A stretch of 38,296 nt of DNA. Source: Alphaproteobacteria bacterium. Its GTDB lineage: Bacteria > Pseudomonadota > Alphaproteobacteria > Micavibrionales > CSBR16-224. Location: assembly GCA_006226225.1 (NCBI GenBank), contig SBHI01000085.1, positions 1 through 38,296 on the forward strand, given 5' to 3'. Positions 13,596 to 33,500 of this stretch are shown here, in pieces. The position numbers and the translations under genes were made by a program. The first letter of the stretch is position 1. Every line of letters starts with the position of its first letter. The notes beneath the pieces were generated by a model that made no database searches, had not been told where the DNA came from, and saw only the letters and a list, made by a program, of their open reading frames with translations.

Positions 13596-13742
13596 GACAT
13601 CCTCACAAAATAATCATATTGAATGCCCGAAAGGTGACATAACGTGCCAAGGATGGCAAGGATTATATTGCCATCAATGTCCTCTTTCCGAATCAATGAT
13701 TTTGGCGTAGTGTTTGATAGTAAAATATTATGCAGGGCAAAA

Positions 13743-14216: not shown

Positions 14217-15700
14217 AAGAAAACACACCCGTCAAACATATCATCGTTTCCGACAAGCCGCTGGACTTTTTGCCTACGGATCCTGCCGTTCTGACCATGA
14301 GCGCCACCGATTTTATTGCCAATAAAGTCGAGATTGATCTGCGCAAACAGCCGCTGCTGAAAGTTATTAACCTATGCAGCAATTTCGATTATCTGTCGAA
14401 AGGCTATTACTGCTCCCTGCTTGCCGAGGCACGCGGCATGCGCTGTGTTCCCTCTGTCGCCCATATCGTTACACTAAACTGGAAACGTAACTATCAATCG
14501 GAACTGCCTGAATTAAATGCGCTTTTGGAAAAGCATTACAAGGAAGAGCCGGACGAGCCACTCGCCCGCACCTATACCGTCTATTTCGGACGCTGCAAGA
14601 TCGAGCAGTTGGAGCCGCTGGCGCGGCGCTTGTTTGATATGTTCCGTTTTCCGCTGATGCAGGTGGAGATCAAAGCCGACCCGAAAGGAAAATGGATCAT
14701 CAGTGATATTGCACCGCTGTCCTTGGCGGAATTGCCTGTGATGAAACAGGACTACTTCATTTCCTCTCTGCAGAAATTTACCGGTTCGGCATGGCGCAGC
14801 CCGCAAAAGAAAAAAGAGAAATATTGGATTGCCATTCTGCATGACCCGGAAGAACAGCATGCACCATCAAACAAAACGGCCTTGCAGAAATTTATCAAGG
14901 CAGGAAAAGATCTGAATGTGTCCGTTGAACTCATTACAAAGAATGACTTTTCTTCCCTACTGGAATATGACGGGCTACTGATCCGCGAAACAACGGCAAT
15001 TAATCACCACACCTACCGCTTTGCTTTAAAAGCGGAGAGCGAGGACATTCCCTCCATTGACGATACCCATTCCATCATCCGCTGCTGTAACAAGGTCTTT
15101 CAATACGAAATACTGCATGCGCACCGGATACCGCTGCCAAAAACATGGATTCTGGATCGAAAATCGGCGAAAACCAGCGTCGGATCTTTTACCTTTCCGT
15201 TGGTGGTCAAGATCCCGGACGGGGCCTTTTCGCTCGGCGTCATCAAAGTCGATAAGGAAGAAAAATTTCAGGCCGCCGTCAGCGACCTTTTGAAAAAATC
15301 GGAGATTATTCTGGTGCAGGAATTTGTGCAGTCGGAATTTGACTGGCGCATCGGCGTGCTGGATGGGCAACCGCTTTTCGCCTGTAAATATTTCATGGCT
15401 GACGGACATTGGCAAATTTACAATCACAGCTCCAAAACCAAAAAAGGTCAGGAAGGCGCGCATATCACCATGGCGGTTGAAGACGTTCCTAAAGCCGTCA
15501 TGGATGTTGCAACCAAAGCCGCCAAGCTGATCGGTGACGGGCTTTATGGTGTGGACTTAAAGCAGTTCGGTGATGACATCGTGGTTATGGAGGTGAATGA
15601 CAACCCCAATTTGGATGCTGGCATCGAAGACCAGCATCTGGGCGACAAACTTTACCGCACCGTACTAGAAAGCCTGATCACACGCATTGAAAACCGTTAA
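14213..15700 (+). CDS. RimK-type ATP-grasp ligase (alpha-L-glutamate-ligase-like) with an N-terminal extra domain
   Basis: 495 aa. The C-terminal ATP-grasp is PLVVKIPDGAFSLGVIKV...ILVQEFVQSEFDWRIGVLDGQPLFACKYFMADGHWQIYNH...GLYGVDLKQFGDDIVVMEVNDNPNLDAGIE. Confidence 0.8.
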   Translation: MKENTPVKHIIVSDKPLDFLPTDPAVLTMSATDFIANKVEIDLRKQPLLKVINLCSNFDYLSKGYYCSLLAEARGMRCVPSVAHIVTLNWKRNYQSELPELNALLEKHYKEEPDEPLARTYTVYFGRCKIEQLEPLARRLFDMFRFPLMQVEIKADPKGKWIISDIAPLSLAELPVMKQDYFISSLQKFTGSAWRSPQKKKEKYWIAILHDPEEQHAPSNKTALQKFIKAGKDLNVSVELITKNDFSSLLEYDGLLIRETTAINHHTYRFALKAESEDIPSIDDTHSIIRCCNKVFQYEILHAHRIPLPKTWILDRKSAKTSVGSFTFPLVVKIPDGAFSLGVIKVDKEEKFQAAVSDLLKKSEIILVQEFVQSEFDWRIGVLDGQPLFACKYFMADGHWQIYNHSSKTKKGQEGAHITMAVEDVPKAVMDVATKAAKLIGDGLYGVDLKQFGDDIVVMEVNDNPNLDAGIEDQHLGDKLYRTVLESLITRIENR

Positions 15701-17934: not shown

Positions 17935-20900
17935 TTAACCACCTTCAACCTCCTGCAACAAAGCCTCTTTTAGAATATCGCTCTGTTTCTGGTAATAATC
18001 GGCAATATCCGAAAGCTGCTGCGTGGTACTGCGCATATAGGCAATTTGTTCCTGTAGCTTGCCTGCATCGGTATTTTCCTGTCCAGCATCCTGCTGCGAT
18101 GGCTGGCTGCCATAGAGTGCCTGAAACAATCTGTTATGCACCAGACGATCAGGGAGCGAGTTCTGGGGCGCATCACTTTCCGTTTGTTCCGGTACGCTGC
18201 CGGATTCCGTCCGTTGGAAAGCGGCATTCTGAGGCTGCACCTTTTCCAGCGCGTCGTTTTGCGCGTCCGGCATTACATCCTGCCCGTTAATATTATCGCG
18301 AATTTGCTGTGACAAACCGTCTGTGCCGTAGAATGCCTGCAAAAAACCGTCACGGGAATGATCCGTTGCCTGCCGGATCAATTCGCTCTCTCCACCAAAA
18401 AGATCGGGACGTAAATTATTGTGCAAATAATCCAGCAAACCGAAATAGCGGCCATCCTGCCCGCTACCTATATTATCAAGGCCGTCTGTGCTGCCCGGCC
18501 GCGCATCTGTTGTAGAGTCGTCCGCCGGAATAAAGCCGTTAAACTCGATTTCATCAAGAACATTCATCACAAAAGCTTGATCGAAAAAGCCGCCATTGCC
18601 GTCACTGACCCTGATTGTCACATTGTGATTAGTCTGTGTTTCAAAATCGACCGTATCCATCAGACGCAGCATATTGCCCGCAATCGTGAATTTCCCGTCA
18701 GGATCACTTTGAATGCTGTAAGTAAAGCTGTCACCCGGCAAGTCGGCATCTGTTGCCGACAATGTGGCGATATCTTTGCCCACCGCCGTCAGCTCCGGCA
18801 AATCGGTGCCGGACAGCATCACCGCTGTCGGAAAATCATTGACCGGATTAATCGTCAGGGGTTTGGTATTGACGATACTGGTATAACCGCTTGTATCCGA
18901 AACGGTAAAATCGAAACTGTCCGCTGTCACTTCACTGCCGTCATGCGTGTAAAGCAAGCGTCCCGCATCAATATCGGTTTGCGTGAACATTCCGCCGACA
19001 CCGCGTGCTTCTCCCGCATCCAAGGTGCCGTTACTATTGGCATCCACGAATAATGTGCCGGTATCCGGTGCATCCGTTACGGTATAAATAATATGACCGC
19101 CGTAAACGATCTGCGTATCTGTCTGGTAAAATGTATTCGGGCTGAAATGGTTGCGGTATTCCGCCGCAACCCATGCGCCGCTGGTCGTACCTTCATAAAC
19201 GCGCAGATTATCATACAGCCCATCGTAATACACATTGTTACGACTGCCATCAAAACTTGTTGCCTCTGATCCGTCACCTATAAAGGCGTAACGCGTCCCA
19301 TCACCCAAACTAGCACCGCCATGTGAATTGGCATCGCGCGCCACTTCCGCACCATCGACATAAAGAATTTTATCCGTACCATCATAAACGGCGGCAATAT
19401 GATGCCAATTGCCATCATTCACCGTCACGCCAGTCGAGTAAAAGTCATCAATGCCAAACCCAGTCCCAGCGGTTGAAAAGCCGACCCGCCCATCACCGTG
19501 AATAAAAACATTAAAAAATTCGCTACGGTCAAAATCGATCAATGACCAGTTCTCACTTAAGCTGGTACCATTAACCGTTGTATTCACCCAGCCGCTCACA
19601 GAAATCTGCGGTAAGGAGTTATTGCCGGACAGGCCGTAATCCAGCGCGATATATTCGGAATTGTTAAATTCCGCCCCACTACCGAAGGCCCCTGCCACCT
19701 GATTACTACTGTCAAAACCGTTGCGCCCAAAGCCGTTATGCGCCCCTTGCGAGCTATCACTGATTTCAACATCAAAATCGCTTTCAAAATGCCAGACACC
19801 GCCATATTCATTGCGCCATGTTGTCGTCTGATTGGTCTCGGACGCGGCTGCATTGCCGTAATAGATATAAAAAATCGTATCCTCTGCGGCTTTCAAATCG
19901 CCACGCGTATAAAGCTGCATGCTTTGCGTGCCCGTATTGAAGGCCACCAGTTCACGGTCAAGCTTGGTCAAACCATCCGCGCCGGTGACAACAATATCCG
20001 ATCCGTCGGCTTTCACATTTCCCCAGAAATCCGCACCAAAGCCGGATTCCGTTAACAGCAGGGCAAAATCATCCAGATCGGCATCGACCAGATCATGGTC
20101 AACGGTAATTTTTTGACGGTATATCCAATTATTATCATACCATGCCGCATCATAGGAAAGCTGCGCATTGGTGATTGCCGTAATCGCCCCCTCATCCGCC
20201 GATGTTGTCGTCAGCGTATCCAGTGCCGGGCTGATCTCGATATCAGCGGTATGCGGGCCGGTGACATTTTCGGCATCACTAACAGTAAAGGAAAAACTAT
20301 CCGTACTATTCGCACCCGCACCATGTGTATAGCTGATATTGCCATCCAGAATATCCTGCTGTGTAAAACTATCACCCAGAGATAACGCTCCGCCGCTTAA
20401 AAACAGCGTACCATTGGACGGCAGTGCCGTCAGTTCGTAAACCAGTCCACCGTCAGGGTCATTAATATCCGTTGCGGTCAACACATCCGTTGTTAAAACA
20501 AGACTGCCGCCCTGCCCCAGCACAGCAGTACCCGTTGTCACCTGCGGTGGGCCTTTAATCCATTTATCAACGATATAATCATTGATGTCGCTGACTTCCT
20601 GCGCGGTCAGCGCATGATTCCATGACCAAAACTCACCGATACTCCCCTGAAAATAGGAGCCCGATCCCAGATTGGCATCGCCAACGGGAGTTTGGCTGTC
20701 ATTGGAATGTCCGATCGTCACATTACCGCTATGCGATCCCAACGTGTCCACCCGCGTCAGAACCTGCGCAGGCCCGCCATTCAGACTGACGGAAAAAGTG
20801 CGGTTATTGATATCAGCATCAGTTGCATCATGGACTGCCGTCACGTAATAGACCGTATTCGGAGCCACCGCCCCCAGATTAACCGATTTATAGCGGTCTG

Positions 20901-21405
20901 CCGCCGCCCAATAACTTTCCCCCCATGTGTAGACGTATAAATCGCCGCCGACCATAATGATATTATAACCGTTTGAGCCGCCGCCCTGTTCATACAGCAT
21001 TTGCGTGCCGCTGACATCTGCGCCGGTTTCAAACACCATTGCAAAAGACTTTTCGCTGTAGCTGCCGGTATTGATTTCCGTCGCATTGGCAATATCAAGA
21101 TAATCGGATGCGCCGTCAAAAAGGATACCGCCTCTGCCGCCAAAAGCCGTATCTTCAAAAGCCGGACGGCTGCCGCCGCTGCCCGTCGCATCATAATTAT
21201 TGCCGCTGTCATCATCCCAGACATCAATCAAGGCACCATCTGCGGGCTGATCATTCGTCAGTCCGTCACCGTCAACATCCAGCGCATCGAAATGAAAAAT
21301 CGTATTGGCAATCACAGGGAAAGAGGCATCAAGCAGCACACGCTGTTCCAGCGCCATCAGCGTCATTTTTGACGTTTTTGCCTTTTTCTCCTTCCCCAAA
21401 AACAT
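17935..21405 (-). CDS. Large extracellular multidomain protein: LEPR-XLL-like N-terminus, LamG, cadherin-like, DUF2341, LamG, cadherin-like, cadherin, and a Gln/Asp-rich tail
   Basis: 1156 aa.
- N-terminus MTLMALEQRVLLDAS, with no hydrophobic signal peptide.
- Two LamG/ConA-like blocks (aa ~60-283 and ~530-755, e.g. NWHHIAAVYDGTDKILYVDGAEV).
- DUF2341-like block NWIYRQKITVDHDLV...IFYIYYGNAAA.
- Cadherin-like blocks ending DSFSFTVSDAEN and DSFDFTVSDTSG.
- Canonical cadherin-type block VNDFPT...ATDADLPGDSFTYSI...VTIRVSDGNGG.
The exact start is uncertain: the GGAG lies only 1 nt from ATG 21405. Confidence 0.8.
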   Translation of the reverse strand: MFLGKEKKAKTSKMTLMALEQRVLLDASFPVIANTIFHFDALDVDGDGLTNDQPADGALIDVWDDDSGNNYDATGSGGSRPAFEDTAFGGRGGILFDGASDYLDIANATEINTGSYSEKSFAMVFETGADVSGTQMLYEQGGGSNGYNIIMVGGDLYVYTWGESYWAAADRYKSVNLGAVAPNTVYYVTAVHDATDADINNRTFSVSLNGGPAQVLTRVDTLGSHSGNVTIGHSNDSQTPVGDANLGSGSYFQGSIGEFWSWNHALTAQEVSDINDYIVDKWIKGPPQVTTGTAVLGQGGSLVLTTDVLTATDINDPDGGLVYELTALPSNGTLFLSGGALSLGDSFTQQDILDGNISYTHGAGANSTDSFSFTVSDAENVTGPHTADIEISPALDTLTTTSADEGAITAITNAQLSYDAAWYDNNWIYRQKITVDHDLVDADLDDFALLLTESGFGADFWGNVKADGSDIVVTGADGLTKLDRELVAFNTGTQSMQLYTRGDLKAAEDTIFYIYYGNAAASETNQTTTWRNEYGGVWHFESDFDVEISDSSQGAHNGFGRNGFDSSNQVAGAFGSGAEFNNSEYIALDYGLSGNNSLPQISVSGWVNTTVNGTSLSENWSLIDFDRSEFFNVFIHGDGRVGFSTAGTGFGIDDFYSTGVTVNDGNWHHIAAVYDGTDKILYVDGAEVARDANSHGGASLGDGTRYAFIGDGSEATSFDGSRNNVYYDGLYDNLRVYEGTTSGAWVAAEYRNHFSPNTFYQTDTQIVYGGHIIYTVTDAPDTGTLFVDANSNGTLDAGEARGVGGMFTQTDIDAGRLLYTHDGSEVTADSFDFTVSDTSGYTSIVNTKPLTINPVNDFPTAVMLSGTDLPELTAVGKDIATLSATDADLPGDSFTYSIQSDPDGKFTIAGNMLRLMDTVDFETQTNHNVTIRVSDGNGGFFDQAFVMNVLDEIEFNGFIPADDSTTDARPGSTDGLDNIGSGQDGRYFGLLDYLHNNLRPDLFGGESELIRQATDHSRDGFLQAFYGTDGLSQQIRDNINGQDVMPDAQNDALEKVQPQNAAFQRTESGSVPEQTESDAPQNSLPDRLVHNRLFQALYGSQPSQQDAGQENTDAGKLQEQIAYMRSTTQQLSDIADYYQKQSDILKEALLQEVEGG

Positions 21406-21500: not shown

Positions 21501-23627
21501 TCAAAACGCAGCTTCTCTTTCCCAGAATGCCGCCAGACGCTGCCAGTATCTCCAGATCATGCTTTCAGCAGAGCTTTCAAGATGCACAACGCCGCGCACA
21601 ACATGCGGGTTTGGCAAAAAATCTTTCATATCCGCCTCAACGGAGAACTGCGCGTCATAAAGCCCGTAACGTGCCGTTAGGCTTGTTTTCCCGGGCACGC
21701 CATCGGTCGGGATACTGCCGCCGAAGGTGGCCGAAAGCTCCGGCCACAACAGGGCATCACTGCTGCTGTCTGCCAGCTTTTCCAACCGTACAGGAAAAGC
21801 TGAGGGAAAATCCGTATCAGGATAAAACTGCCCCATGCCGGAGAGATAGTTTTTTTCTCTTTTATTTTCATGTATATAGCCGCTAACTCTTAAGCTGTCG
21901 GGCTGCACCAATACTCCCAGACGCTGCGCAGGACTGATCCAGCGCCCCTGATGCAGCTCTGTTGCCACATCACTCACTATACCGGATATATCCGCTGTCA
22001 TTACCAGCCGTTGCTGCTGTTCGCGTAAACCGGACAATCTTTGCGCAGCAGCAGCCAGTTTTTCCGTCAATGGCTCCTGTTCGGGATGGTCGCGGGCAAG
22101 GATTTGCTGCTGATCCCGCAATCTCTGCAGTGATTGATAGTCCAGCTCTGCCAGGGTAATTTGCTGCTGTAATTGTGGTGATTCAATCACCGCCAGAATA
22201 TCCCCTTTTTCAACCTGTTGTCCTGCCGTCATATTGAACGTCGTCAGCTTTCCGGCAACCGGCGCATACAGATCCGTATAAGAGGCGCTATGCAGCACCG
22301 CAGGAATACTGACCGTATGTGTCCGCGGCAATGCCGCCACCATGAATATGCCGATTATCACACAGATGCAGATCAAAGCGCGGAGGGAACGGTATGATTT
22401 TCCTCTCCCTCGCCACCAGACAGTCATTTCCCGCCAGATCGGCAAAGCGATAAACCATGCAATTTCAACAACCATCAAAAAGATATTCAAGGGCGGAAAG
22501 AACAGTGCAAAAACCACCCAGGCAATCCCCAGAAACAGAAACAAGCGGTAGACCCAGAGCGCAAAACCGAAACATTGAAAGAAGCGCCGCTGCCGTAAAG
22601 AGAGATTCTCCGGCATATCATCCTGCCAGCCCCATAAAAACCGTCGCAAGCGCCATTTTGCCCAAAGACAGGTGCGGTCTTGCAGGTTTTCAATGCCCAG
22701 CGCATCGGACAGCAGGTAATAGCCGTCAAACTTCATCAACGGATTTAAATTCACCAGCAAGCTACCTGTCAGAGAAACCAGCGCGACAAAGAAGGCAGTA
22801 CTTTTGCCCAGCCCTGCGGGAAGAACATGCCACAACAATAAGGCGATGGCGGCAAGGCTGATTTCCGTCAGCACGCCTGCCGCAGCAATCACGACACGCT
22901 TGCGCCTGTCGGTCAGCGCCCACGCCCCCGTTGTCTCCGTATACAGAACCGGGTACAGCACAATAAATGCGACACCGATCACCGGCACCTTGACCCCGTA
23001 TTTTGTCGCCGCGTAGGCATGCCCCAATTCGTGCAATGTTTTGACAAACACCGTTGTCAGCACAATCAGTACCGCCCCTTCCCAATTCAAGATATTTTGA
23101 AAGCTGTGCAGGAATTCATCCATACGCTGAAAGGTCATCAACAACCCTGCCGCCAGTAAAAGCAACATCATCAGCAGAAAAGTCTTCGACAAGAACGGCC
23201 GCACAATGGGCAGACTTCGCTCCAGAAAATTTTGTGGTTTAAAAAGCGGAAGTGTTACAAAAAGATAACCATGCAACGCACTCTTCCAAAAGGGTTTTTC
23301 CGCAAGCTGCGCACGACGCCCATGCTGCGCCGATGCTTGCGGTGTCGCCCCTTGCACCAGTTGGTTTTGCACAAGAAAACCCGACAAGTCCCGCACCGTT
23401 TCCGTATCAATCGTCAGCGTTGTTTCCGCATTCACAGCGCGGACAAGATCATCAGCCTGGCCGCAATCCGCCAAACGGCGCAGGCATTCAAACGCCGTCC
23501 ACCCAATCTTATAAAAGCGATGCGCCAGCGGGTCGTAAATCACCCAATGCGGCGCGCCATCCGTACCTGATGCGGTTCTGTCGATTTGCAAATCTTCCCG
23601 CAACAACGGTAAATCGCGTTTTGCCAT
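21501..23627 (-). CDS. Fusion protein: PqqD/RRE-like N-domain + polytopic M50 (site-2-protease family) zinc metalloprotease + C-terminal HlyD-type barrel/coiled-coil domain
   Basis: 708 aa.
- HExxH as LHELGHAY (23019-23033).
- Second S2P motif NLNPLMKFDG (22722-22751), which fits NxxPxxxxDG.
- Multiple TM helices between aa ~145-435.
- N-terminal aa ~25-92 (HWVIYDPLAHRFYKIGWTAFECLRRL...ADDLVRAVNAE...VRDLSGFLVQNQLV) look like a PqqD-type winged helix.
- The C-terminus has a lipoyl-like hairpin (LYAPVAGKLTTFNMTAGQQVEKGDILAVIESPQL) and a Gln-rich coiled coil. Confidence 0.8.
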   Translation of the reverse strand: MAKRDLPLLREDLQIDRTASGTDGAPHWVIYDPLAHRFYKIGWTAFECLRRLADCGQADDLVRAVNAETTLTIDTETVRDLSGFLVQNQLVQGATPQASAQHGRRAQLAEKPFWKSALHGYLFVTLPLFKPQNFLERSLPIVRPFLSKTFLLMMLLLLAAGLLMTFQRMDEFLHSFQNILNWEGAVLIVLTTVFVKTLHELGHAYAATKYGVKVPVIGVAFIVLYPVLYTETTGAWALTDRRKRVVIAAAGVLTEISLAAIALLLWHVLPAGLGKSTAFFVALVSLTGSLLVNLNPLMKFDGYYLLSDALGIENLQDRTCLWAKWRLRRFLWGWQDDMPENLSLRQRRFFQCFGFALWVYRLFLFLGIAWVVFALFFPPLNIFLMVVEIAWFIALPIWREMTVWWRGRGKSYRSLRALICICVIIGIFMVAALPRTHTVSIPAVLHSASYTDLYAPVAGKLTTFNMTAGQQVEKGDILAVIESPQLQQQITLAELDYQSLQRLRDQQQILARDHPEQEPLTEKLAAAAQRLSGLREQQQRLVMTADISGIVSDVATELHQGRWISPAQRLGVLVQPDSLRVSGYIHENKREKNYLSGMGQFYPDTDFPSAFPVRLEKLADSSSDALLWPELSATFGGSIPTDGVPGKTSLTARYGLYDAQFSVEADMKDFLPNPHVVRGVVHLESSAESMIWRYWQRLAAFWEREAAF

Positions 23628-23630
23628 CTT

Positions 23631-24965
23631 CTATACTCCCAGAAAACGGCGCAGGGAAATCAACGGACGTCTGAAAAGGCTGTAAGCCAGAAAACTGCGC
23701 GCACCATAGATCTTTGCCGTCCCTGTCAGGCCGATACGCGCCGCATCATCCTCTGCAAAAGTCGCGCGTATTTTATAAGTCAGCAGGCCGTCGGCATCGA
23801 GCGATGCCTGATAACCAATGGTTCTCAGATGTGCCTGATGTTTTTTCAAAGGTGCCGTATTCAGGAAAAAGGCCGCAGGCGCGGCTTCGTCAATCCGCAA
23901 CATGGCATCAACAGGAACGCGGATCAGCAGCTCCGTATCATGTGGCGGTGCCAGCATCATAACCTTATCACCTGTCCGTACGGGGCGGCCGCGCAAGTCG
24001 TTTTTATCAGAGAAAACCGCAACACCGTCGCGCGGCGCCGTTATCACGGCTTGCGCGAGAAGTTCTCGCGCATAATGTAATTCCTGCTGCCGCAGCGCAA
24101 TCTCCGCCCGCAGCGCCGCCAGCTCCTGCTTCTTTTCCGGCGCTGTGATGGATTCGCGCTCCGCCTTTGCCAGCACAGCCTGTGCCATCGTTTGACGGTG
24201 CTCCGCTTCCGCGACCTGACTGCGCAAAGCCGTATCATCTATTTTTGCCAAGACTTCTCCCTGTTTGACCAACGTATTCGGCTCAATCAGGATATCCGCC
24301 AACATGCCGTCGAAGGGGATGGTGATTACGTAAGGGTCTTTGGCAACAACCTCCGCCGGCGCGGTTACCGACAGCTTGACAGGCCAGCACAGCGCTACCA
24401 ACACGGCCAACAGAAAGACCTTTCCCTTCCAGCTGGGCAGCTTTTTTCCACGCCTCTGTACCAACACTTGTAAACCGTAACCATAAGCATCTGCCAATTC
24501 ATCCAGCAAGACCTTATCCAAGGCTGCAAACGGCTCTTCCCGGTCTATCCACAAGGCACCTGTCACATGACCGCTACGGTCATATAATGCAACCAGTGCA
24601 GCATTGGCGGAACACCATGTTTGCCAGTTTTTTTTATCCGTTCCTTCTACATCTTTCGCATGCAAAATACGCACAGCCTCATCCGACTCCTGCTGCGGTA
24701 AATGCCGTGCAATAAAATCAGACAGCCACAACAGATACGGGCTGTTTTTTTCCATCTCCGTCAAACCGGAAACCGTTTCAATGCCATTTTCACCTGTCCA
24801 GAACAGCGCCTGCCGGTACGGAACAAGGCGGTAAGTTTCATTGACCATCATAAACGCCAGCTCTGCCGCCGTCTTTTGACTGCGGGACTGGCGTTGCAGA
24901 GAAAGAAGCAAGAGCAGCTTTTCAGCCTGTGCGTCTATTTTTTTGGTGTTTTTCTTACTCATCAC
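23631..24965 (-). CDS. HlyD-family periplasmic adaptor with an N-terminal cytosolic GAF-like domain
   Basis: 444 aa. Residues ~1-175 are soluble and GAF-like (ELAFMMVNETYRLVPYRQALFW...ALVALYDRSGHVTGALWIDREEPF). A single TM (VFLLAVLVALCWPV) follows. The adaptor core is ITIPFDGMLADILIEPNTLVKQGEVLAKIDD, a coiled coil, then VITAPRDGVAVF. The start overlaps the upstream gene by 11 nt. Confidence 0.75.
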   Translation of the reverse strand: MMSKKNTKKIDAQAEKLLLLLSLQRQSRSQKTAAELAFMMVNETYRLVPYRQALFWTGENGIETVSGLTEMEKNSPYLLWLSDFIARHLPQQESDEAVRILHAKDVEGTDKKNWQTWCSANAALVALYDRSGHVTGALWIDREEPFAALDKVLLDELADAYGYGLQVLVQRRGKKLPSWKGKVFLLAVLVALCWPVKLSVTAPAEVVAKDPYVITIPFDGMLADILIEPNTLVKQGEVLAKIDDTALRSQVAEAEHRQTMAQAVLAKAERESITAPEKKQELAALRAEIALRQQELHYARELLAQAVITAPRDGVAVFSDKNDLRGRPVRTGDKVMMLAPPHDTELLIRVPVDAMLRIDEAAPAAFFLNTAPLKKHQAHLRTIGYQASLDADGLLTYKIRATFAEDDAARIGLTGTAKIYGARSFLAYSLFRRPLISLRRFLGV

Positions 24966-26400
24966 TCGAATCCTGCGGTGCTTCTTCGGGATTTGCCGCT
25001 ACTTTCAGCCCGATAAAGCCCAACGGGATTTTCTTGCGTGCGGCTCCGACATCAAAAATCGCTTTGCCGCCCATACCCGGCAGCAATTCCTCCTGATATG
25101 ACGACAGCTCAGCAACGATTTCCGCCGTCTGGCTGACAGGATCGACTTTTCCATGGACGCGAATGACTTTCGCCGGATATGTTTTTCCGCTTTCCTCCAC
25201 ATAGACATCAAACGGCGTACCGACATTCAGCCAGCGCAGCCAGACAGACGGCACAAGAAATTGCAGCAGCAACGGTTCATTGGAAGAAATTTCCATCAAT
25301 ACACGCCCGCGTTCCGCATATTCATAGGGGCTTGCCAGCCTGTTGGTCACACGTCCGTCAAAAGGTGCCTTAATCGTGCAAAGCGCGATGCGTTTTTCAA
25401 CCTGTGCCAAACGCGCTTGCTCCTGCGCTACGCTTTCCTGTGCCGCAATATATTCGATTTCCGATAAGGTTCCCAATTTGCGCAATTGCTTTTTGGCTTT
25501 CAGTTCGGCATCCGCCAAACGCAGGGCTGCGCTTTTTTCACTGTAAAGCGCCTCTTCAAGCGCACAGTCGAAACGTGCCAGAATATCTTCGGCGGAAAAA
25601 ACATCACCGTTCTGAAAAGGAAAATCGAGAATCCTGCCGCTCATCAGGCTTGAAATCACCGCCTGTCTACGCGCAATCAGAACGGACTGCACCTCATGCG
25701 TTTCAACAGGCGCTTCGACCACGGGCGGCAATGTTTCCACAGCTGCCGTTTCGACCGGATTATCCCCAGCTGCCGGAGCAATCTGTGCGAAACTTTCAAT
25801 ATCCTCCAGCACTTTCCGCATCGGGTCAGCCTCGTCGGCGATGGGCGGCTCCTGTTTTTTCTCTTCCTTAAGAGAGGCCAGCTGCAGAGGTGTCTTTTCA
25901 CGCGATGAAACGGAGAAGAATAATTTCCGTGCCGCTGCAAATTCGACGGTTTTTTGCTCAAACGCGCGGATATCCCGCGACACTGCCGTGATCGTATGGG
26001 ATGCCGTCTGTATAAAAGGTGCATAAGCTATAACAGCCTGCTGTTTGAGTGTTGTCAAATCGGGCAGCTTCACATCTGCGAGTTTTTGGACTGTCTGTTT
26101 CCGCAGCTTTCCGGCTTTATCTGCCGTCTCCCGCCCCAACTCACCTGCAAAAGCGCCAAATGCTTGCAATTGCTGTCCCGCAAGTGCAGGGGCGCGGCGC
26201 CAATCTTCTTTATTAAATAAAAGCGGGTCGGAAAGCACCAGCATCAATCCCAGCACTGCACCAAACAGCGCGCAGGCAACAAACAACGCACGGGTTTTGC
26301 CCGCAGGTGCTTTACGCTGCGCGCGCCCTTCGGATTTCCGTCCGAACGGTACCGTTTTGTTTTTGCCTCCCGATGCATCAAGCATGGTGTCTCTTCGCAA
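24955..26400 (-). CDS. HlyD/MFP-family periplasmic adaptor subunit with a long N-proximal spacer
   Basis: 481 aa. A basic N-terminus is followed by a TM (ALFVACALFGAVLGLMLVL), a ~180-aa spacer with PVET-type short repeats, and an adaptor core (SGRILDFPFQNGDVFSAEDILARFD..coiled coil..CTIKAPFDGRVTNRL...FDVYVEESGKTYPAKVIRV). Confidence 0.75.
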   Translation of the reverse strand: MRRDTMLDASGGKNKTVPFGRKSEGRAQRKAPAGKTRALFVACALFGAVLGLMLVLSDPLLFNKEDWRRAPALAGQQLQAFGAFAGELGRETADKAGKLRKQTVQKLADVKLPDLTTLKQQAVIAYAPFIQTASHTITAVSRDIRAFEQKTVEFAAARKLFFSVSSREKTPLQLASLKEEKKQEPPIADEADPMRKVLEDIESFAQIAPAAGDNPVETAAVETLPPVVEAPVETHEVQSVLIARRQAVISSLMSGRILDFPFQNGDVFSAEDILARFDCALEEALYSEKSAALRLADAELKAKKQLRKLGTLSEIEYIAAQESVAQEQARLAQVEKRIALCTIKAPFDGRVTNRLASPYEYAERGRVLMEISSNEPLLLQFLVPSVWLRWLNVGTPFDVYVEESGKTYPAKVIRVHGKVDPVSQTAEIVAELSSYQEELLPGMGGKAIFDVGAARKKIPLGFIGLKVAANPEEAPQDSSDE

Positions 26401-26408
26401 CCTTTCCT

Positions 26409-27962
26409 TTACCGATGCGGTGTTTGCAATGCCGCATCAAGCTGTGTCAGGTGATATTGTTTATCGTCTTTTTTTTGTTTTTCTCCGTCTTGTTTTTCGG
26501 CATTCTGCCACACATCCACCCCCAGACTGTTCAGCATGCGTGCATAAGCATGCTGCGCCGCCTGATAGGCGAAAATCCTATCCCATTGCAACAAAGCGTC
26601 ATCCAGCTCTGTGTTTAAAACACTTAAATCACTGCCCAACCCCGCTTCACGCTTGCGTCTTTCGCTACGCAAAATCCTCCGGTAATTATCGGCCTGTTCA
26701 TCCATTTGTGAAAACTGGCTGCGACTTTCCTCCAATTGCTGTTTAGCGACATGAACCTGCGCAATCACCGCAACCAGCAGGGCATAGCGTTGCTTATCAG
26801 ACAGTGCCTTTTTGTTCTTGGCCTGCTCATAGCGCTGCGGCAGCGTAAATAAATCCATCAGCATTGCAGAAAGCGACACCGAGAAATTCGCCCAATCCTG
26901 ATCAGATAAAAAAGAGTTCGTATCTTTGTTTAGCCCCAGAAAAAAGCGCGCACCGGGCAGAACTTCCAGCACCGTCGTTTTGATTTCGCGCAGAGCAATG
27001 CGCTCTTTCAAAAAAGCTTCTTTCACTTCCGGACGGTTCATCAGAGCCGTGTCCTGCAGCTTCTCCAGATCCTGTTCCAGCTTGGGCAAGTCATCCGAGG
27101 TCAGCCAGTTTTTTTGCGGTAACTGTAATACAATTTTATCGTCAGGCGATAATCCGATCAGTGTTTTCAGCTCCAGCATCGCCCGGGCAACATTACGGCG
27201 TTTCTCCGCCAGTGTATTGCGCTTACGCAGCAGCTCCTCTTTTTTCTGCAAGCCGCTTTCATAGGGAATAATGCCTTTTTTGATAGCTTGCTCCAAATCC
27301 GCCAGCCGCTTATCCGCCTCTGTCAGCAGCGCGGCATGTTTGGATGACGTTTCCTGTTCTGCCGCCGCACGCCAGAAGGCGACATAAACATCCTGCGCCA
27401 GATTTTGCAGAACTTTGCGGCGGCGCTCATGCGCGATCAATACACGGTCTGATGCCGTACGCGCATGGGCAACGGTGACTGCAGCATCCAGAATATTCCA
27501 ACTTGCTTCCAATTGCGCCGTGCGGCGGTGCCTGTCCGTTGAAATCGATGGCTCCAGCGACTGCATCCCCGTCAAAGCCGACCGGCTTGATGATGCCCCC
27601 GTATTACTGCGCCCCTGATAGGATGCACCGGCTTCGATTTTCGGCAGCAGGCTTAATTTTTCGATATTATATTCACCGCTGCGGATCAGCTCTTCCATCA
27701 GCGCGACCTGCACATCCAGATTGCGCTTCACGGCCAAATCAAGCGCATCATCCAATGTTATCTGCAAAATGCCATCATTACCTTGCGCGACTGCCTCCAA
27801 ATCACCGCGCAGCCTTTCAGCATATTCTTCTTCCCCCATAGGGCTGGTTGCCGTTGAACAAGCAGCCAAAAGCAGCAATCCGGACAACAGCAAAAAGAAT
27901 TTGCTAAGATGACACAGGTTTATACGGGAACAAAGAGTCATAGAGACCAAAATTTCCAACAA
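26409..27962 (-). CDS. TolC/NodT-like outer-membrane factor lipoprotein
   Basis: 517 aa. Lipobox LLLLAAC, then two tandem OEP-type helical repeats (LDDALDLAVKRNLDVQVA..., LEKLQDTALMNRPEVKEAF...). The start may be M8 (27941). Confidence 0.8.
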   Translation of the reverse strand: MLEILVSMTLCSRINLCHLSKFFLLLSGLLLLAACSTATSPMGEEEYAERLRGDLEAVAQGNDGILQITLDDALDLAVKRNLDVQVALMEELIRSGEYNIEKLSLLPKIEAGASYQGRSNTGASSSRSALTGMQSLEPSISTDRHRRTAQLEASWNILDAAVTVAHARTASDRVLIAHERRRKVLQNLAQDVYVAFWRAAAEQETSSKHAALLTEADKRLADLEQAIKKGIIPYESGLQKKEELLRKRNTLAEKRRNVARAMLELKTLIGLSPDDKIVLQLPQKNWLTSDDLPKLEQDLEKLQDTALMNRPEVKEAFLKERIALREIKTTVLEVLPGARFFLGLNKDTNSFLSDQDWANFSVSLSAMLMDLFTLPQRYEQAKNKKALSDKQRYALLVAVIAQVHVAKQQLEESRSQFSQMDEQADNYRRILRSERRKREAGLGSDLSVLNTELDDALLQWDRIFAYQAAQHAYARMLNSLGVDVWQNAEKQDGEKQKKDDKQYHLTQLDAALQTPHR

Positions 27963-28022: not shown

Positions 28023-28050
28023 ATTCTACGCTCTTCTCTATATAGGTCAA
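28023..28050 (-). promoter_or_regulatory. Candidate sigma70-type promoter for the TolC/adaptor/M50 operon (TTGACC-N16-TAGAAT)
   Basis: On the minus strand, TTGACC is at 28050-28045, followed by a 16-nt spacer and TAGAAT at 28028-28023. This lies downstream of the DUF465 terminators and 60-90 nt upstream of the TolC start. The predicted +1 falls inside the 27997-28020 palindrome. Confidence 0.45.
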
Positions 28051-28163: not shown

Positions 28164-28412
28164 TTATGCAGCTTCGGTTTTGACAATGATTTCCAGCATT
28201 TCATCCTTCAGCGCAAGGCGTGTCTTTTTCAGATTTTCCAGACGCTCGTCGCTTGCGGCTTCAATTTCTTTTTCGATGCGCAGGATTTCTTTCGTCACGT
28301 CTTCATATTCGTCGAAAAGCTTTTTAAAATGCGCATCCGTCGTTTTCAGCGTATGAATAGCTTCTTTGTGTTCCGGCAATTCATGTACCAAATCGTGATG
28401 TTCTTCCAACAT
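28164..28412 (-). CDS. DUF465 (YdcH-like) small coiled-coil protein
   Basis: 82 aa: LVHELPEHKEAIHTLKTTDAHFKKLFDEYEDVTKEILRIE...LENLKKTRLALKDEM, which matches the family signature. Confidence 0.8.
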   Translation of the reverse strand: MLEEHHDLVHELPEHKEAIHTLKTTDAHFKKLFDEYEDVTKEILRIEKEIEAASDERLENLKKTRLALKDEMLEIIVKTEAA

Positions 28413-28481: not shown

Positions 28482-29738
28482 TCATCCCGCCGTTCCAAAA
28501 CGGCGTATTGCTTCATAACCCAGTCCCAAGCCAACACTGGACAGCTTGTTCTCCTCGGAAATATCAGCTTGCGGAAATTTCGCCGCAACGGTTTTCTTCA
28601 GTAGCGGCACTTCCGTTGTGCCACCTGTCAGAATAATCAGCTCGACATCTTTTTCCCTCACCTGCGCCTGCCGCAAACAGTCATCAATATCGGAAACAAT
28701 CGCGCGCACATGTTTATCTACCGCCGCATTGAAAACCGCGCGCGCTACGGAGACGGCAAATCCCGCCTCGACAAAATCCAGCAGCGCCGTCATTTGCAAA
28801 TGATCCGTCAAGCCGATCTTGCATTCTTCAACCGCTGCCAAAAGCTGATGCCCCTTTCCCTCCTCCAGCAATTTGATATAACGCGAAAACTTCTCCGGTG
28901 CATGCGACTGCGGCAGAATATCCCGCATTTGTTTGTGCATTTTCGGCGTATATAAAAAATTGATCTTCGACCATTCGGACATATCGTGGAACGGAACCGC
29001 AGGCAGCGGCAAATTTTTCTCGCCGTAATCCGTTCCATATCCAAAATCAGGCATAAAAGCGCTGAGACTTAGATCCTTATCGAAATCATTGCCGCCAATA
29101 CGAATGCCGGAATTGCCGAGAATGTCATCCGTGCGGTCACTTTTATCCATCATGTTCTGCGCCAGACGAATGACGGTAAAATCCGATGTACCGCCCCCGA
29201 TATCGGCAACCAGTGCCAGTTGTTCGGAACGCAGTGTCCTCTCATGCGCAAAAGCCGCAGCAATCGGCTCATACTGAAAGGCGACATGTTTAAATCCGAC
29301 CGCCTTTGCGATATTCTGCAATTCATCCTGTGCGCGGCTGTCGGTTTTACTGTCATTATCGGCAAAATGCACGGGTCTGCCCATGACAACATTCGTCATT
29401 TCAACACCGCTGTGCCGTTCCGCCGCCGCTTTCATATTCCCGATAAAATCACCCAACACATCTTCAAATCTTTTTAGTTTACCGTTCACCACAGTACCAT
29501 CATTCATCAGACTGGTGCCCAGAATGCGCTTCAAACTGCGCATGAAACGCCCTTCTTCGCCCTCCATAAACAACCGCATCGCTTGTTTACCGAAACGGGC
29601 ATCCGACGCATTGACGGCATAAAAGACCGCGCTGGGAATTGTGATCTCCTCCCCCTCTAAAGGTACAAGCGTTACAGCACGTTCCCGGCAAAGAGAAAGC
29701 GTTGAATTCGAGGTTCCAAAATCAAGACCGCAATTCAT
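28482..29738 (-). CDS. Hsp70-family ATPase, YegD-like
   Basis: Actin-fold phosphate-1 motif CGLDFGTSNSTLS at the N-terminus, phosphate-2 VADIGGGTSDFTVIRL, and adenosine motif LTGGTTEVPLL. The ORF track extends 108 codons further (to 30062), but homologues start just before DxGT. ATG 29738 was verified in the sequence. Confidence 0.8.
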   Translation of the reverse strand: MNCGLDFGTSNSTLSLCRERAVTLVPLEGEEITIPSAVFYAVNASDARFGKQAMRLFMEGEEGRFMRSLKRILGTSLMNDGTVVNGKLKRFEDVLGDFIGNMKAAAERHSGVEMTNVVMGRPVHFADNDSKTDSRAQDELQNIAKAVGFKHVAFQYEPIAAAFAHERTLRSEQLALVADIGGGTSDFTVIRLAQNMMDKSDRTDDILGNSGIRIGGNDFDKDLSLSAFMPDFGYGTDYGEKNLPLPAVPFHDMSEWSKINFLYTPKMHKQMRDILPQSHAPEKFSRYIKLLEEGKGHQLLAAVEECKIGLTDHLQMTALLDFVEAGFAVSVARAVFNAAVDKHVRAIVSDIDDCLRQAQVREKDVELIILTGGTTEVPLLKKTVAAKFPQADISEENKLSSVGLGLGYEAIRRFGTAG

Positions 29739-29880
29739 GGAAATATCTGTTCTGTTTGGTGGTGACGCAAATGCCTTCCATAGATAGGAAGGATAGCGGC
29801 TTTTGTCAAGCTGCGGCGCAGGCAGATCGCATATAGGGCTGGCGCAATCTAAAATATCTCCTCTATAATCAAAAAATAGA

Positions 29881-30558
29881 ATGCCCGCAATTTTTGCCTT
29901 ATGGTTTTCAGATATGCCGGATTTCACAGTTTTCGACAAAACAACGCTGATTACAATTGCCAGCGCAGCAGCAACATTTATCGCCGTGCTGGGGATCGGA
30001 CTGGCAGTCATTAAAGACAAAACACGGATACAGAAAAAACGGCAAAAAACGCGCGGCGGCAAAGGCTGGCAAAATGCCCGTCAAAGCCTGCGCCATATGC
30101 CGTGGAAACGACTGCGCTTTTCTTCTGTCAAAAATCTCCGCAACATCCTGATTATTCTCTTCCTGCTATCAATCATCCTCGTGGGCAAAGTGCTGGAACC
30201 ATCCCCCCCGAAAAAAAGTGGCAAAAACGTAGACAGCTCGATTTTCTGCCATTCTCCCTACATTATTGACGGGGATACTTTCGACTGTGTCGGCACACGC
30301 ATCCGTCTGATGGGAATTGATGCGCCGGAAATGCCCGATCATTGCAGGCCCGGACGACGCTGTACAGAAGGAGACCCTTTTGCCGCCAAAAAATATCTGG
30401 AATCTCTGGCGACAGGATGGGTGAAATGTCGTGCAATCGAGATTGACCATTACGGCCGCACCATTGCCCGCTGCAAGGTAAAAGATGTTGACCTTTCCTG
30501 CGCCATGATCGCCTCCGGTCACGCCGTCCGGCGTTACAGCAGTATTTCCTGCCCTTAA
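29881..30558 (+). CDS. Thermonuclease (staphylococcal nuclease-like) family protein with N-terminal membrane anchor(s)
   Basis: SNase motifs are present: YIIDGDTFDC, IRLMGIDAPEM, DHYGRTIARC. There is a hydrophobic segment ILIILFLLSIILVG. The start is uncertain (29881, 29911 or 30097), and none has a clear SD. Confidence 0.65.
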   Translation: MPAIFALWFSDMPDFTVFDKTTLITIASAAATFIAVLGIGLAVIKDKTRIQKKRQKTRGGKGWQNARQSLRHMPWKRLRFSSVKNLRNILIILFLLSIILVGKVLEPSPPKKSGKNVDSSIFCHSPYIIDGDTFDCVGTRIRLMGIDAPEMPDHCRPGRRCTEGDPFAAKKYLESLATGWVKCRAIEIDHYGRTIARCKVKDVDLSCAMIASGHAVRRYSSISCP

Positions 30559-30566
30559 ACCGGCAA

Positions 30567-33500
30567 TCAGAAACTGCCGACGATATTAAAGAAAACACCG
30601 CGGCTTTGGTAATCCAGATTGGTCAGATCATCCGAGAAGTCGGTAAAATTGTAGCCGATGCCGAGTTTAACATTCTCGTTCACATGTCTGTACACACCGA
30701 CCAATCCGCCGGCTTTTGCATCGCCGGCATCTTTCGCATCAAGATAGCGCAGTTCACCCGTTACATCCCATTCATGCACCACATGCCAATCGGCGCGTGC
30801 CACACCCAGCCATGCGGTACTGCTAAACCACGGCGTGCCGGATGCCGTCGTGTCGTGCAGCTCGCCAATGCGGTATCCCAGCTTGCCGCCCACTGACAGT
30901 TTCGGACACAGGTCATAAATAAAATCACCCGAGAAGACATGACTGCGCTGCTCATATCCGTTCGCAGCGCCCGTGCCGGAAACCTGTCCCGGGCTACCTT
31001 CATCAGACAAATAAGTATAACGCACCAACGCATTTAACTTGTCATTTAACACGGGACGGTAACCAAAGCCCAGATTCAGCTCGGTAAAATTCGCATCCGT
31101 TGTGCTGCCTGTGCCTGCCTCGCTTAGTGCGACATCCAGCCCACCCGAGAAACGCCAGTCTTCCGAAACCTGATAGACCAATGTGTTTTTCATCAACCAT
31201 GATGTCCTGTCGCCGGTTGTATTGCCGCTTTCATCACGCCATTCCAGCGTACCGCCATATTTAACTTTATCGCGGGTATAGCCCGCAGAAATTGAGGCTG
31301 CAATCCGGTCAAGATCACCCGTTGCCGGGTCGGAGGTTTTACCCGTTTCGAATTTACCGCCCCATGTCCAATAATCGCTGGCGGCAAGATCCAGCCCCAT
31401 CGCATGCATAATGCCGGATTGTCCTTGCTGTGCATGCAGATAGCGCTGCTCGGAAAACACAGACAGATTATCGGTATAACGGGAACGCGTCCCCGCCACC
31501 AGCATATTACTGCGTCCGTTATTGCCGGTATCGGTACGTCCCGTATCAGAAAGATAATTTATATAATGGCTTGTGCGGTCATCAACACGGTAATCCAGCC
31601 CCGCTTTACCGCCGAGGCCGTCGTCGCCGCCTGTCAGCTCGGCGCTGATTTCCAGCCGGTCATTCAGGCGGAATAATCCGCCGCCGCCATAACGGTCATT
31701 ATCCAGACGAGTCCTGTCACGGTGCAATGTTGTTTGCGCCAAGCCATAAATTTCATAACGTCCCGGCGTGCCCTCTGTCGTCAGCGGCGCATGACCCAGT
31801 TTGACAATGGCATCCGTCCTCTCACCCGTTTGCGCCAATACAGTACTGCCACCAGCTGCCAGAGCCGTATCACGGTCGTCATGACGCGCACCGACTGTGA
31901 GGGTTGTTTCCTGCGACAGTGCGTAGTCAACACCTGCCTCAACTGCCTTGTAACTGCCGGTTGTCTTGCCTTCCTTAAAGTCGGCCTTCGCCGTAAAATC
32001 CAGCCTGTCCGATACCGGTAGACGCAACATGCCACCCGCTTGTTCGACACCTTCATTCGTCAACTGCCCCGGCGCAGAAAAACCGTTTTGCCTGTTCAGC
32101 CAGTATCCCGACAATGTGCCGCTTTGCCCGCCATCCGTCAGTTCGGCAAAATCGGCGGCGATTTCGACACGGTGCGCGTCTGCCGCAATACCTGCAGTTC
32201 CCGTCTGCGGGATTGCGCCGAAATTGAAACCGCCATTCTGCGACGACATGCCGCCTGTTCCCGGGCCGTCAGAGCGCGCGGTTTCCAGCTTCAGATAAGT
32301 GCCGGGTTTGTAACGCAATGTCATATCCGCCCCCAGCAGACTTTGCTGCCGCCCCGTCCCTTTTTGCTCATAACCCGATGCGCCAATCCGCAAATGATCA
32401 TTCACCCAATGACTGGCACGGCCGCCTTTGGTCATGTTATCGACGGAAGAGACACCGGGCGTAAATTCATAGCCTGCGACCAGATAAACAGGGTTACCGC
32501 CCTGCGTACCATTTAGAATAAAAGCGGAAATCCCTGCTGTTGATTCCAGCGGCGTGCTTAAAATGACACGCCCTTGAATATAATTGATGTCGTAATCCTG
32601 CCCGTAAATCAGCGTCTTGGATTGCAAGACAATGCCGGATTCCTGATCACGCACTTCAACACGCAGCCTTTCCGATCCGATAACAATATCCTGATTGCGC
32701 AGATAATAAAGCGATCCACCGGTACCGCGGAATTCTTCAATCGCGTCCAGCGTTCCGGGATCAGCGGCAAACAGGTCAAGTTCCGTACGCTTTTCGCCAA
32801 AGGCGGTTGTCGTCATACTGCCGTGATGTGCATTCGCCCCATAAAGCGTGCGGCTGAAATTCATCAGATCTGTTCCCGTCAAACGGGTCTGGAAACTGCC
32901 CCACAGCACCTTGGTATCGTTTTTTTCAACCTTCACATAGAATTTTCCTAAAGTCGGCGCATCCTCGATCAAGGTGGAATCATCGCCATAAACCGGATAA
33001 TAGGCACTGGGATCAAGGCGGCGCAGCAGACTGCGGGCATCTTTTTCATCGAATTGCGAGAAAATATCTTCAAGCGGCTTTTCCTGCGTATCGGCGCTGG
33101 AGGTCACTTGCCAGCCATTCTGTAATTTACCTTTGGTGTAATAGGCCAAACGCCCTTCGGTATAGAGTTTTTCATTATAGCGGTCACTGTTCTTGCCTGT
33201 AACCAATGCCGCGGGGCCTTTGACATCATTCAGCCCCATTGTCAGGTCGGCAATACCGACCGTAAACCACTCATGTGACGGAATATCGATATGGCGACTG
33301 AATTCCGTACGACCACCATCCGTTTTTTCACGCACGACATCCACGCTGTGATCGCCCGCAGGCAATATCTGCTCTACGGCAAATTTTCCGTTCCCATCCA
33401 CCGGAACAGACTGCCCCATCACCAGTACCTTTTCCCCTGCCGCAATATCCGCACCATTGACCGTCACAGTACCGCCATGAACGGGAATATTGCGCAGCCC

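Follow-up and report, generated by a model that had tools for sequence, protein, structure and literature searches.

The 38,296-nucleotide DNA stretch examined here (Alphaproteobacteria bacterium, Micavibrionales; contig SBHI01000085.1 of assembly GCA_006226225.1), referred to as the window, encodes a 708-amino-acid (aa) fusion protein that is probably the inner-membrane core of a five-gene system for recognizing, cleaving and exporting giant proteins with an N-terminal LEPR-XLL leader. The chain joins an apparent winged helix of the RRE type (RiPP recognition element, where RiPP denotes a peptide made by the ribosome and then modified post-translationally), an intramembrane site-2 protease (S2P) and a HlyD-type adaptor, and the five genes encode a TolC-like outer-membrane factor (OMF), two single-pass adaptors, the fusion and the cargo. 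The fusion contains recognizable domains of these kinds, its catalytic residues are conserved among homologues, and the module is tightly linked to the genes for its presumed cargo. In the proposed mechanism, the cytoplasmic winged helix would bind the leader, the S2P site, at that same face of the membrane, would cut it off, and the fused adaptor together with the two paralogous adaptors would, by homology with adaptors of the MacA/AcrA type, build a periplasmic tube that docks on the OMF and through which the cargo would exit or be displayed. The triple fusion is not a singular event, as it belongs to a large conserved family.

Domains, catalytic motifs and predicted topology of the fusion protein

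The open reading frame (ORF) of the fusion lies on the minus strand, starts with ATG at 23627 and stops at 21501-21503. Its features are the following.

21501..23627, minus strand: RRE - site-2 protease - HlyD adaptor fusion, 708 aa (ORF, Pfam, NCBIfam, alignment, AlphaFold, Foldseek)
23367..23588, minus strand: RRE/PqqD-like winged helix, residues 14-87 (AlphaFold, Foldseek; inside the NF041824 match)
22332..23186, minus strand: predicted polytopic M50 core, residues 148-432, with seven transmembrane (TM) helices and a re-entrant beta-hairpin at 217-230 (hydropathy, AlphaFold secondary structure, PF02163, weak PDB match to mjS2P 3b4r)
23019..23033, minus strand: HELGH zinc-binding and catalytic motif, residues 199-203 (H199, E200 and H203 invariant in 28 homologues)
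22722..22751, minus strand: NLNPLMKFDG, second S2P motif, residues 293-302, with D301 as presumed third zinc ligand (homologue alignment)
21504..22325, minus strand: predicted periplasmic adaptor part, residues 435-708, with a lipoyl-like domain, a Gln-rich alpha-hairpin (484-510 / 518-539) and a beta-barrel (Pfam, Foldseek, AlphaFold)

The original prediction, made from the letters of the window, had described three modules in one 708-aa chain, and the ORF, the RRE fold and the M50 and HlyD matches bear this out. In Pfam, Peptidase_M50 (PF02163) matches residues 193-286, its 28.9 bits lying narrowly over the gathering score of 27.2; Biotin_lipoyl_2, HlyD_3 and HlyD_D23 all match within residues 453-587. 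Among the NCBIfam models, NF041824 (daptide_HExxH) aligns with residues 27-373 over 326 of its 379 positions (E 2.5e-43), at a score of 148.6 bits that falls under the curated cut-off of 300 and leaves the fusion outside the daptide equivalog. NF058609 (YydH/LiaK epipeptide protease) matches residues 148-317 (E 2.7e-10), and several adaptor models, including RND_mfp, match as well. The full-length AlphaFold model has a predicted local distance difference test (pLDDT) score of 81.3.

Both S2P motifs, HELGH at 23019-23033 and NLNPLMKFDG at 22722-22751, are found at exactly the coordinates first given for them, and the conservation in orthologues on which the original prediction depended is complete, with H199, E200, H203, N293, N295, P296, F300, D301 and G302 invariant across 28 homologues of 34-84% identity. 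Because these zinc-protease residues do not vary, the fusion is, judged from its sequence, a protease with genuine motifs and not a pseudo-protease, and proteolysis is predicted for it. HELGH sits inside helix 182-209 of the AlphaFold model, which is the HExxH-in-TM-helix arrangement of M50 proteases, and the region of this helix matches the archaeal mjS2P (3b4r) weakly by sequence (E 1.6e-3). The invariant positions between N293 and G302, combined with the predicted topology, would supply the other M50 characteristic, a third zinc ligand at the end of a TM helix on the same membrane face. Further invariant charged residues were located by alignment and model in or near the predicted TM helices and outside the zinc site (R244, E255, R361, E388, and E400), and a role for them in gating or proton coupling is a matter of speculation.

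Hydropathy and the model place the seven TM helices at approximately 148-167, 182-209, 241-268, 273-293, 344-375, 378-406, and 415-432, with the beta-hairpin at 217-230 re-entering the membrane as in S2Ps. Lysine and arginine residues number 18 in the predicted cytoplasmic loops versus 1 in the short periplasmic loops, and because of this distribution (positive-inside rule on predicted helices), the RRE and both catalytic motifs are assigned to the cytoplasmic side of the membrane and the adaptor to the periplasmic side, in agreement with the orientation originally proposed. In this topology, both zinc motifs would lie at the cytoplasmic ends of helices running from outside to inside. The C-terminal part is modeled as beta-rich domains with a helical hairpin, and its structural matches in Foldseek include MacA, AcrA, EmrA, and MexA (E 7.5e-14 to 1e-10), which place it with the HlyD-family adaptors.

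The N-terminal domain is modeled as a beta3-alpha3 fold with strands at 14-18, 27-32, and 37-41 and helices at 43-52, 58-68, and 75-87, and modeled in isolation it forms a winged helix, as RREs do, with a pLDDT of 83.3 and a predicted TM-score (pTM) of 0.70. The top six Foldseek matches in the PDB are the lasso-peptide RREs TbiB1 (5v1u, 5v1v) and TfuB1 (6jx3) with leader bound, at probabilities of 0.99-1.0, TM-scores of 0.54-0.73 and root-mean-square deviations of 2.6-5.3 Å (2.6 Å for TfuB1). The seventh is CteB, a sactipeptide synthase, which we take to carry an RRE, and beyond it the probabilities fall below 0.3. A relative on a Methylosinus plasmid with 26% identity and the same three-module architecture and context passes the Pfam PqqD model over residues 37-101 (28.7 vs 23.4 bits) and is named 'PqqD family protein' in RefSeq, and the NF041824 family of daptide proteases, which also covers the N-terminal domain, has been published as an 'RRE-dependent intramembrane peptidase' (PMC10036551). 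Because of these Foldseek matches, the match to a published RRE-dependent peptidase family and the PqqD-positive relative, the assignment of the N-terminal domain to the RRE/PqqD type is supported, as first proposed. Pfam run on the isolated domain returned just a meaningless Zwint match.

LEPR-XLL leaders, presumed giant cargo and conserved gene order

The fusion gene is closely packed on the minus strand with the other genes of the module.

17935..21405, minus strand: presumed cargo, 1156-aa LamG/cadherin-repeat protein with no repeats-in-toxin (RTX) sequences (Cadherin_3 E 1e-30, Laminin_G_3 E 5.6e-20)
21322..21351, minus strand: LEPR-XLL-type leader core LEQRVLLDAS, cargo residues 19-28, after a Lys-rich N-terminus (NF012209)
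23631..24965, minus strand: adaptor (membrane fusion protein) paralogue 2, with a cytoplasmic N-domain of ~180 aa, one TM helix (~183-201) and a periplasmic HlyD part, as predicted (HlyD_3 E 5.1e-10, hydropathy)
24955..26400, minus strand: adaptor (membrane fusion protein) paralogue 1, with a basic N-tail, one TM helix (~38-58) and a periplasmic HlyD/RND_mfp part, as predicted (HlyD_3 E 3.4e-15, TIGR01730 107 bits, hydropathy)
26409..27962, minus strand: OMF of the TolC/OEP family, longest ORF of 517 aa; LLLAAC is a probable lipoprotein signal (Pfam OEP E 4.4e-31; lipobox read from the sequence)

Adaptor 2 overlaps adaptor 1 by 11 nt, a gap of 3 nt separates it from the fusion, and 95 nt separate the fusion from the cargo gene, whose ATG is directly preceded by the Shine-Dalgarno sequence GGAG. 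The cargo begins MFLGKEKKAKTSKMTLMALEQRVLLDAS. When just its first 78 residues are compared with NCBIfam, NF012209 (LEPR-XLL domain, LEPR-8K) matches residues 18-35 with 19.6 bits, above the curated threshold of 17, which makes the protein a member of that family. The first ~30 aa of this protein had been named in the original prediction as a candidate ligand of the N-terminal domain, a choice strongly backed by comparative genomics, as a conserved LEPR-XLL leader lies there.

Gene context was studied in 85 loci outside the window (84 non-duplicate), with the proteins of the window as BLAST queries, and leaders were sought in all their ORFs of at least 40 aa by a regular expression, with R required by the pattern, followed by a hidden Markov model (HMM) built from its matches. 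The leader motif occurs in 45 ORFs of the 84 non-duplicate loci, in one copy per protein that lies 8-125 aa into the longest ORF, and it is carried only by giant ORFs (~590 to >3,300 aa, many of them running off the locus) or by ORFs that the locus boundary truncates. All 45 leader ORFs adjoin the module: 37 lie downstream and 4 immediately upstream, in both cases on the module's strand, and the other 4 are divergent; the 37 downstream ORFs have a median gap of 226 bp, with 26 of them starting no more than 600 bp past the fusion stop. A leader-bearing protein is present in 33 of the 51 loci whose flanks extend 4 kb or more downstream and 6 kb or more upstream. The 44 unique leaders give a logo with a basic/Pro-rich N-region, the core (L)(L)A-L-E-(P/S/K/Q)-R-(I/M/L/V)-(M/L/V)-(F/L)-D-(G/A)-A and an Ala-rich stretch AAATxAEV, in which L, E, and D never vary, although the search pattern would have accepted other residues at E and D. 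The common form is ALEPRxMFDGA, and the form in the window is LEQRVLLDAS. Leader variants (LEKR..LLDAS vs LEPR..MFDGA) follow the module phylogeny, a pattern that reflects co-adaptation or shared descent, which covariation between RRE and leader does not separate. Charged residues occupy the position where a Sec h-region would be, as judged by reading the leader sequences.

The giant protein beside the module has 1,156 aa in the window, and elsewhere its length reaches ~8,800 aa. The RTX motif GGxGxD is absent from 16 of 19 complete cargo ORFs and occurs once or twice in the other three, so the cargo almost entirely lacks the RTX hallmark of type I secretion system (T1SS) substrates. At their C-termini, the cargo proteins of the window (17935-18200, minus strand) and of loci L010, L057, L069, L071, and L076 have a similar amphipathic helix (…YYxKQSDxLKxALLQE…, …YHxxxQxxLxxAL…), and Nitrospira cargo instead ends in a hydrophobic helix followed by a basic tail; these C-terminal helices could be a second sorting or anchoring signal.

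Relatives of the fusion are numerous. Among 8,000 candidates scored, 964 match at E<=1e-5 and are mostly 700-725 aa long; at E<=1e-30, there are 3,298 representative clusters (50% identity), almost all with a length near 700 aa, and the top 150 are nearly all aligned end to end. In species-representative genomes, at least 590 candidate stretches encode a relative. The best 80 loci come from Alpha-, Beta- and Gammaproteobacteria (several Pseudomonas species, Halomonas, Azospirillum, Methylobacterium, and Phytobacter), Nitrospira, Scalindua, Desulfobulbaceae and Bdellovibrio-like metagenome-assembled genomes (MAGs). Relatives are also encoded on 68 plasmids, including 18 from Escherichia coli and 8 from Citrobacter. 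The source annotations of these proteins are generic: 'HlyD family efflux transporter periplasmic adaptor subunit', 'biotin/lipoyl-binding protein', 'site-2 protease family protein', 'putative peptide zinc metalloprotease protein' or 'PqqD family protein'.

The order OMF, adaptor 1, adaptor 2, fusion was recovered by BLAST in the 85 loci, and it is kept in Proteobacteria, Nitrospira and Scalindua as well as on E. coli plasmids. Where at least 6.5 kb of upstream sequence was available (63 loci), the OMF and both adaptors are present in 46 loci and both adaptors in 10 more. Clustering of all non-overlapping ORFs of the 85 loci gave three families present in more than 10 loci, namely adaptors (82), giant repeat proteins (57), and OMFs (57), and no ATP-binding cassette (ABC), other ATPase, resistance-nodulation-division (RND) or major facilitator superfamily (MFS) family common to these loci. 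No ABC transporter, ATPase, RND or MFS partner was found in the 38-kb window either, and the typical neighbors of daptide proteases (small precursors ending in Thr and the MpaB/C/D/M enzymes) were found in neither the window nor the 85 loci.

In E. coli, the system forms a cassette on IncF-type plasmids, present in 24 of 5,426 complete genomes, with a 13.4-kb 'Ig-like domain' giant gene, TolC, two adaptors and the fusion gene flanked by insertion sequences (IS). The giant protein starts MTTIKNRRLRPRAHRFALESRQLFDGAA / MTTIKNRRLRPRAHRFALESRQLFDGAALAE, so that the leader pairing is kept, and the IS-flanked cassette contains no ABC gene, leaving it without the operon-encoded ABC partner of a T1SS. 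On plasmid NZ_CP104683 (L087, 96967-116712) and in the 23 other genomes, IS5-like and IS1 elements enclose the complete five-gene unit; it behaves as a mobile cassette, codes for an Ig-like surface protein of ~4,450 aa, is hosted by clinical, wastewater and fecal E. coli, and occurs at the same identity on Citrobacter and Hafnia plasmids. The self-contained nature of this plasmid cassette makes the hypothesis directly testable in a standard laboratory organism.

The leader pairing is also kept in the distant variant of Methylosinus, where a 26.5-kb LamG gene encodes a protein with the leader ...FDTLEPRVLLNADV / ...RRAKIIFDTLEPRVLLNADV. This variant, on plasmid pMSC49a of Methylosinus sp. C49 (L088, 6486-15162), has another gene order and adds further genes to those for the PqqD-M50-HlyD protein, TolC and a second adaptor: they encode a DUF3467 protein, an adaptor of 629 aa and a protein of 638 aa with the annotation 'prepilin peptidase'. 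In four loci from Rhizobiaceae/Pseudomonadota MAGs (L007, L008, L012, and L018), the fusion is followed by another group of conserved genes, which encode a ~362-aa coiled-coil protein and proteins of ~390, ~634, and ~430 aa (e.g., L007 12304-17542), with no LEPR-leader giant protein 3' of the module, and these genes may represent an alternative cargo set.

The export model, its alternatives and known systems

Taken as a whole, the interpretation given in the original prediction is supported, with leader binding, cleavage and export as the steps that we infer. Several points weigh against it. The module contains neither an ATPase nor a known transporter that would supply an energy source or a protein-conducting channel, and no S2P-family protein is known to translocate proteins. 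The Foldseek E-values behind the RRE assignment are modest (2e-3 to 5e-2), Pfam PqqD (PF05402) has no match at E<=10 in residues 1-121, which leaves the domain outside that sequence family, a profile of 24 N-domain sequences retrieved nothing relevant from the PDB sequences, and its hhalign alignment with the PqqD-positive N-domain of Methylosinus is in register and weak (E 0.053). Among the 51 loci with ample flanks, 18 have no leader-bearing protein within 10 kb; the fraction with a leader is nevertheless an underestimate and the absence partly a sampling effect, because a giant 'DUF4347' gene of Azospirillum lies farther upstream, beyond the OMF and past the reach of the loci first fetched for its relatives. 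LEPR giants of Chlorobium chlorochromatii have been reported beside TolC-like and SapC genes with no mention of an M50-adaptor (Chlorochromatium preprint), and the leader may therefore not always pair with the module in cis. A weak precedent for a protease with a part in transport is the M50 protease EpeP (YydH), an intramembrane enzyme thought to both cleave and export its substrate, which differs in being Gram-positive, in having no adaptor or OMF and in acting on a small peptide (PMC10885120).

The lack of a translocase or ATPase in the module would also suit a tether-and-release function, where the giant protein is secreted by a machine encoded elsewhere (e.g., a classical T1SS) and the module keeps the N-terminus of that protein tethered to the inner membrane and cuts it to release or regulate the adhesin, as LapG/LapD do with LapA. 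An N-terminal leader would leave last in C-terminus-first secretion, and an amphipathic helix of conserved appearance at the end of several cargo proteins is a possible C-terminal signal. This explanation is nevertheless considered unlikely, as the conserved OMF and three adaptors exceed the needs of a release protease, the E. coli cassette moves between IS elements without any ABC gene, and the cargo has no RTX repeats. Maturation and export of a small RiPP-type peptide (daptide- or epipeptide-like), with the giant gene as an unrelated neighbor, is suggested by the best NCBIfam matches, which are to the daptide and YydH/LiaK proteases, and by the RRE domain, which is typical of RiPP pathways. 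It is made very improbable by the leader HMM, which in the ORFs of the 85 loci matched giant ORFs or those cut by the locus end and no small leader-bearing ones, by the lack of modifying enzymes or small-ORF families conserved in these loci, and by the sub-threshold score against the daptide model.

Other roles can be envisaged for the adaptor and protease parts separately. The resemblance of the adaptors to MacA, AcrA, and EmrA and the RefSeq naming as an efflux adaptor would fit a tripartite pump for small molecules or metals with the M50-like domain recruited as membrane anchor or transporter, but the invariance of the complete zinc-protease motif set, the fusion of a peptide-binding fold to the protease and the specific linkage to leader-bearing giants leave little room for such a pump. 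Membership of the S2P family would allow the canonical role of regulated intramembrane proteolysis in signaling, such as the cleavage of anti-sigma factors; with no sigma/anti-sigma or regulator genes conserved nearby and no role there for the adaptor fusion and the conserved OMF, signaling is the hardest of these explanations to credit.

If the proposed export function is correct, a family of >3,000 clusters (50% identity) with generic annotation only would gain a function, and a widespread N-terminal motif would be explained; some LEPR-XLL proteins count among the largest known from bacteria. It would also describe a tripartite envelope system with a protease instead of a transporter at the inner membrane, raising the question of how transport is energized. 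A bolder reading, which is put forward tentatively, is that the module represents an unrecognized class of secretion system in diderms, where an RRE-guided intramembrane metalloprotease-adaptor engine replaces the ABC component and export of the giant proteins proceeds N-terminus first through a heteromeric three-adaptor/TolC conduit. Export might then be co-translational, with the LEPR-XLL leader removed at the cytoplasmic face, and might draw its power from the proton motive force or from extracellular Ca2+-dependent folding of cadherin-like repeats instead of a dedicated ATPase. On this reading, LEPR-XLL would be the export signal that has long been missing for many of the largest proteins of bacteria. 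Speculatively, an N-terminal signal could let export start before translation of a multi-thousand-residue protein ends.

Several known systems share features with the module. In peptidase-containing ABC transporters (PCATs), such as colicin V CvaAB-TolC, a cytosolic C39 cysteine peptidase is fused to an ABC transporter and the substrates are small bacteriocins. The likeness lies in an N-terminal leader cut by the protease of an envelope-spanning exporter, with maturation coupled to export via an adaptor and TolC, and the differences in the intramembrane metalloprotease fused here to the adaptor, the lack of a conserved ABC component, and the size of the cargo (1,000 to >8,000 aa). The classical T1SS relies on an ABC ATPase and on substrates with RTX repeats and a C-terminal signal. 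Its giant-adhesin forms (LapA/LapBCE with LapG and SiiE/SiiCDF) resemble the module in that adhesins with cadherin- or Ig-like repeats are encoded beside membrane fusion protein and TolC-like genes and undergo N-terminal proteolysis, but no ABC ATPase was found here and RTX repeats are almost absent, even if the cargo could have a C-terminal signal. Rhombosortase/GlyGly-CTERM and exosortase/PEP-CTERM systems use C-terminal tags with a TM helix, rhombosortase being a serine rhomboid; they likewise couple a short, conserved sorting tag, located at one terminus of numerous surface proteins, to a polytopic intramembrane processing enzyme of its own, and differ in the C-terminal position of the tag, in the enzyme class and in having no envelope-spanning conduit attached. 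TriABC-OpmH, an RND-driven exporter of triclosan with two different adaptors and no protease, likewise has more than one adaptor paralogue per tripartite assembly.

The closest counterpart is MpaP, in which an N-terminal RRE is fused to an intramembrane S2P and leader removal is RRE-dependent (Ren et al. 2023, PMC10036551). An adaptor domain, an OMF and partner adaptors are all lacking in the case of MpaP. It belongs to RiPP clusters of Gram-positive bacteria that also encode modifying enzymes and small precursors (ELExMEAP leader, C-terminal Thr), and neither of these two is present here. RRE-S2P fusions (MpaP), adaptor-TolC conduits and leader cleavage coupled to export (PCATs) are therefore already known, and the novelty originally claimed for the architecture holds in part: joining the RRE to an S2P is not new (PMC10036551), and the further fusion to an adaptor, like the partnership with two adaptors and an OMF in the absence of a transporter and the pairing with LEPR-XLL giant proteins, was not found described in the full-text literature searched, which covers few subscription journals. 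LEPR-XLL or LEPRxLL itself was found there only in passing mentions.

Adaptor particulars and neighboring genes in the window

The two adaptors of the window each have an additional region. Adaptor 1 has 481 aa versus ~250-290 aa for its counterparts at most other loci, and the extra ~170 aa (residues ~60-230) are low-complexity, Ala/Glu/Pro-rich and periplasmic, with no Pfam or PDB sequence match. The N-domain of adaptor 2 (residues 1-182) likewise has no Pfam and no PDB sequence match; it could be a second cargo-recognition or regulatory domain, a role suggested because HlyD-type adaptors contact the substrate or transporter at that position.

Scans for terminators and promoters gave nothing informative except one candidate promoter, and promoter-like sites in the region are no more numerous than in shuffled sequence.

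28023..28050, minus strand: candidate sigma-70 promoter TTGACC-16-TAGAAT, 5' of the OMF gene (consensus scan, 10 of 12 matches, pattern only)

Upstream of the module, at 30567-38209 on the minus strand, lie genes for a 1382-aa OmpA-domain protein and a 1164-aa protein with SdrD_B, CarboxypepD_reg and DUF11 repeats, which are syntenic in the close relatives L001 and L002 and fall outside the conserved module. Between these large envelope genes and the OMF gene are a YegD-like gene of the Hsp70 family (28482-30062, minus strand; NF008673 268 bits, under the cut-off of 331) and a small ORF (28164-28412, minus strand) at the place where close relatives have a DUF465 gene, both present in the closest relatives only. 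The Hsp70-like ORF of 526 aa is probably over-extended at a TTG start, as its relatives are called at 418 aa. On the other side of the cargo gene, overlapping genes on the plus strand (13644-15700) encode a GNAT acetyltransferase and a RimK-like ATP-grasp protein with an RLAN N-domain, a pair that is kept in close relatives and is unrelated to the module.

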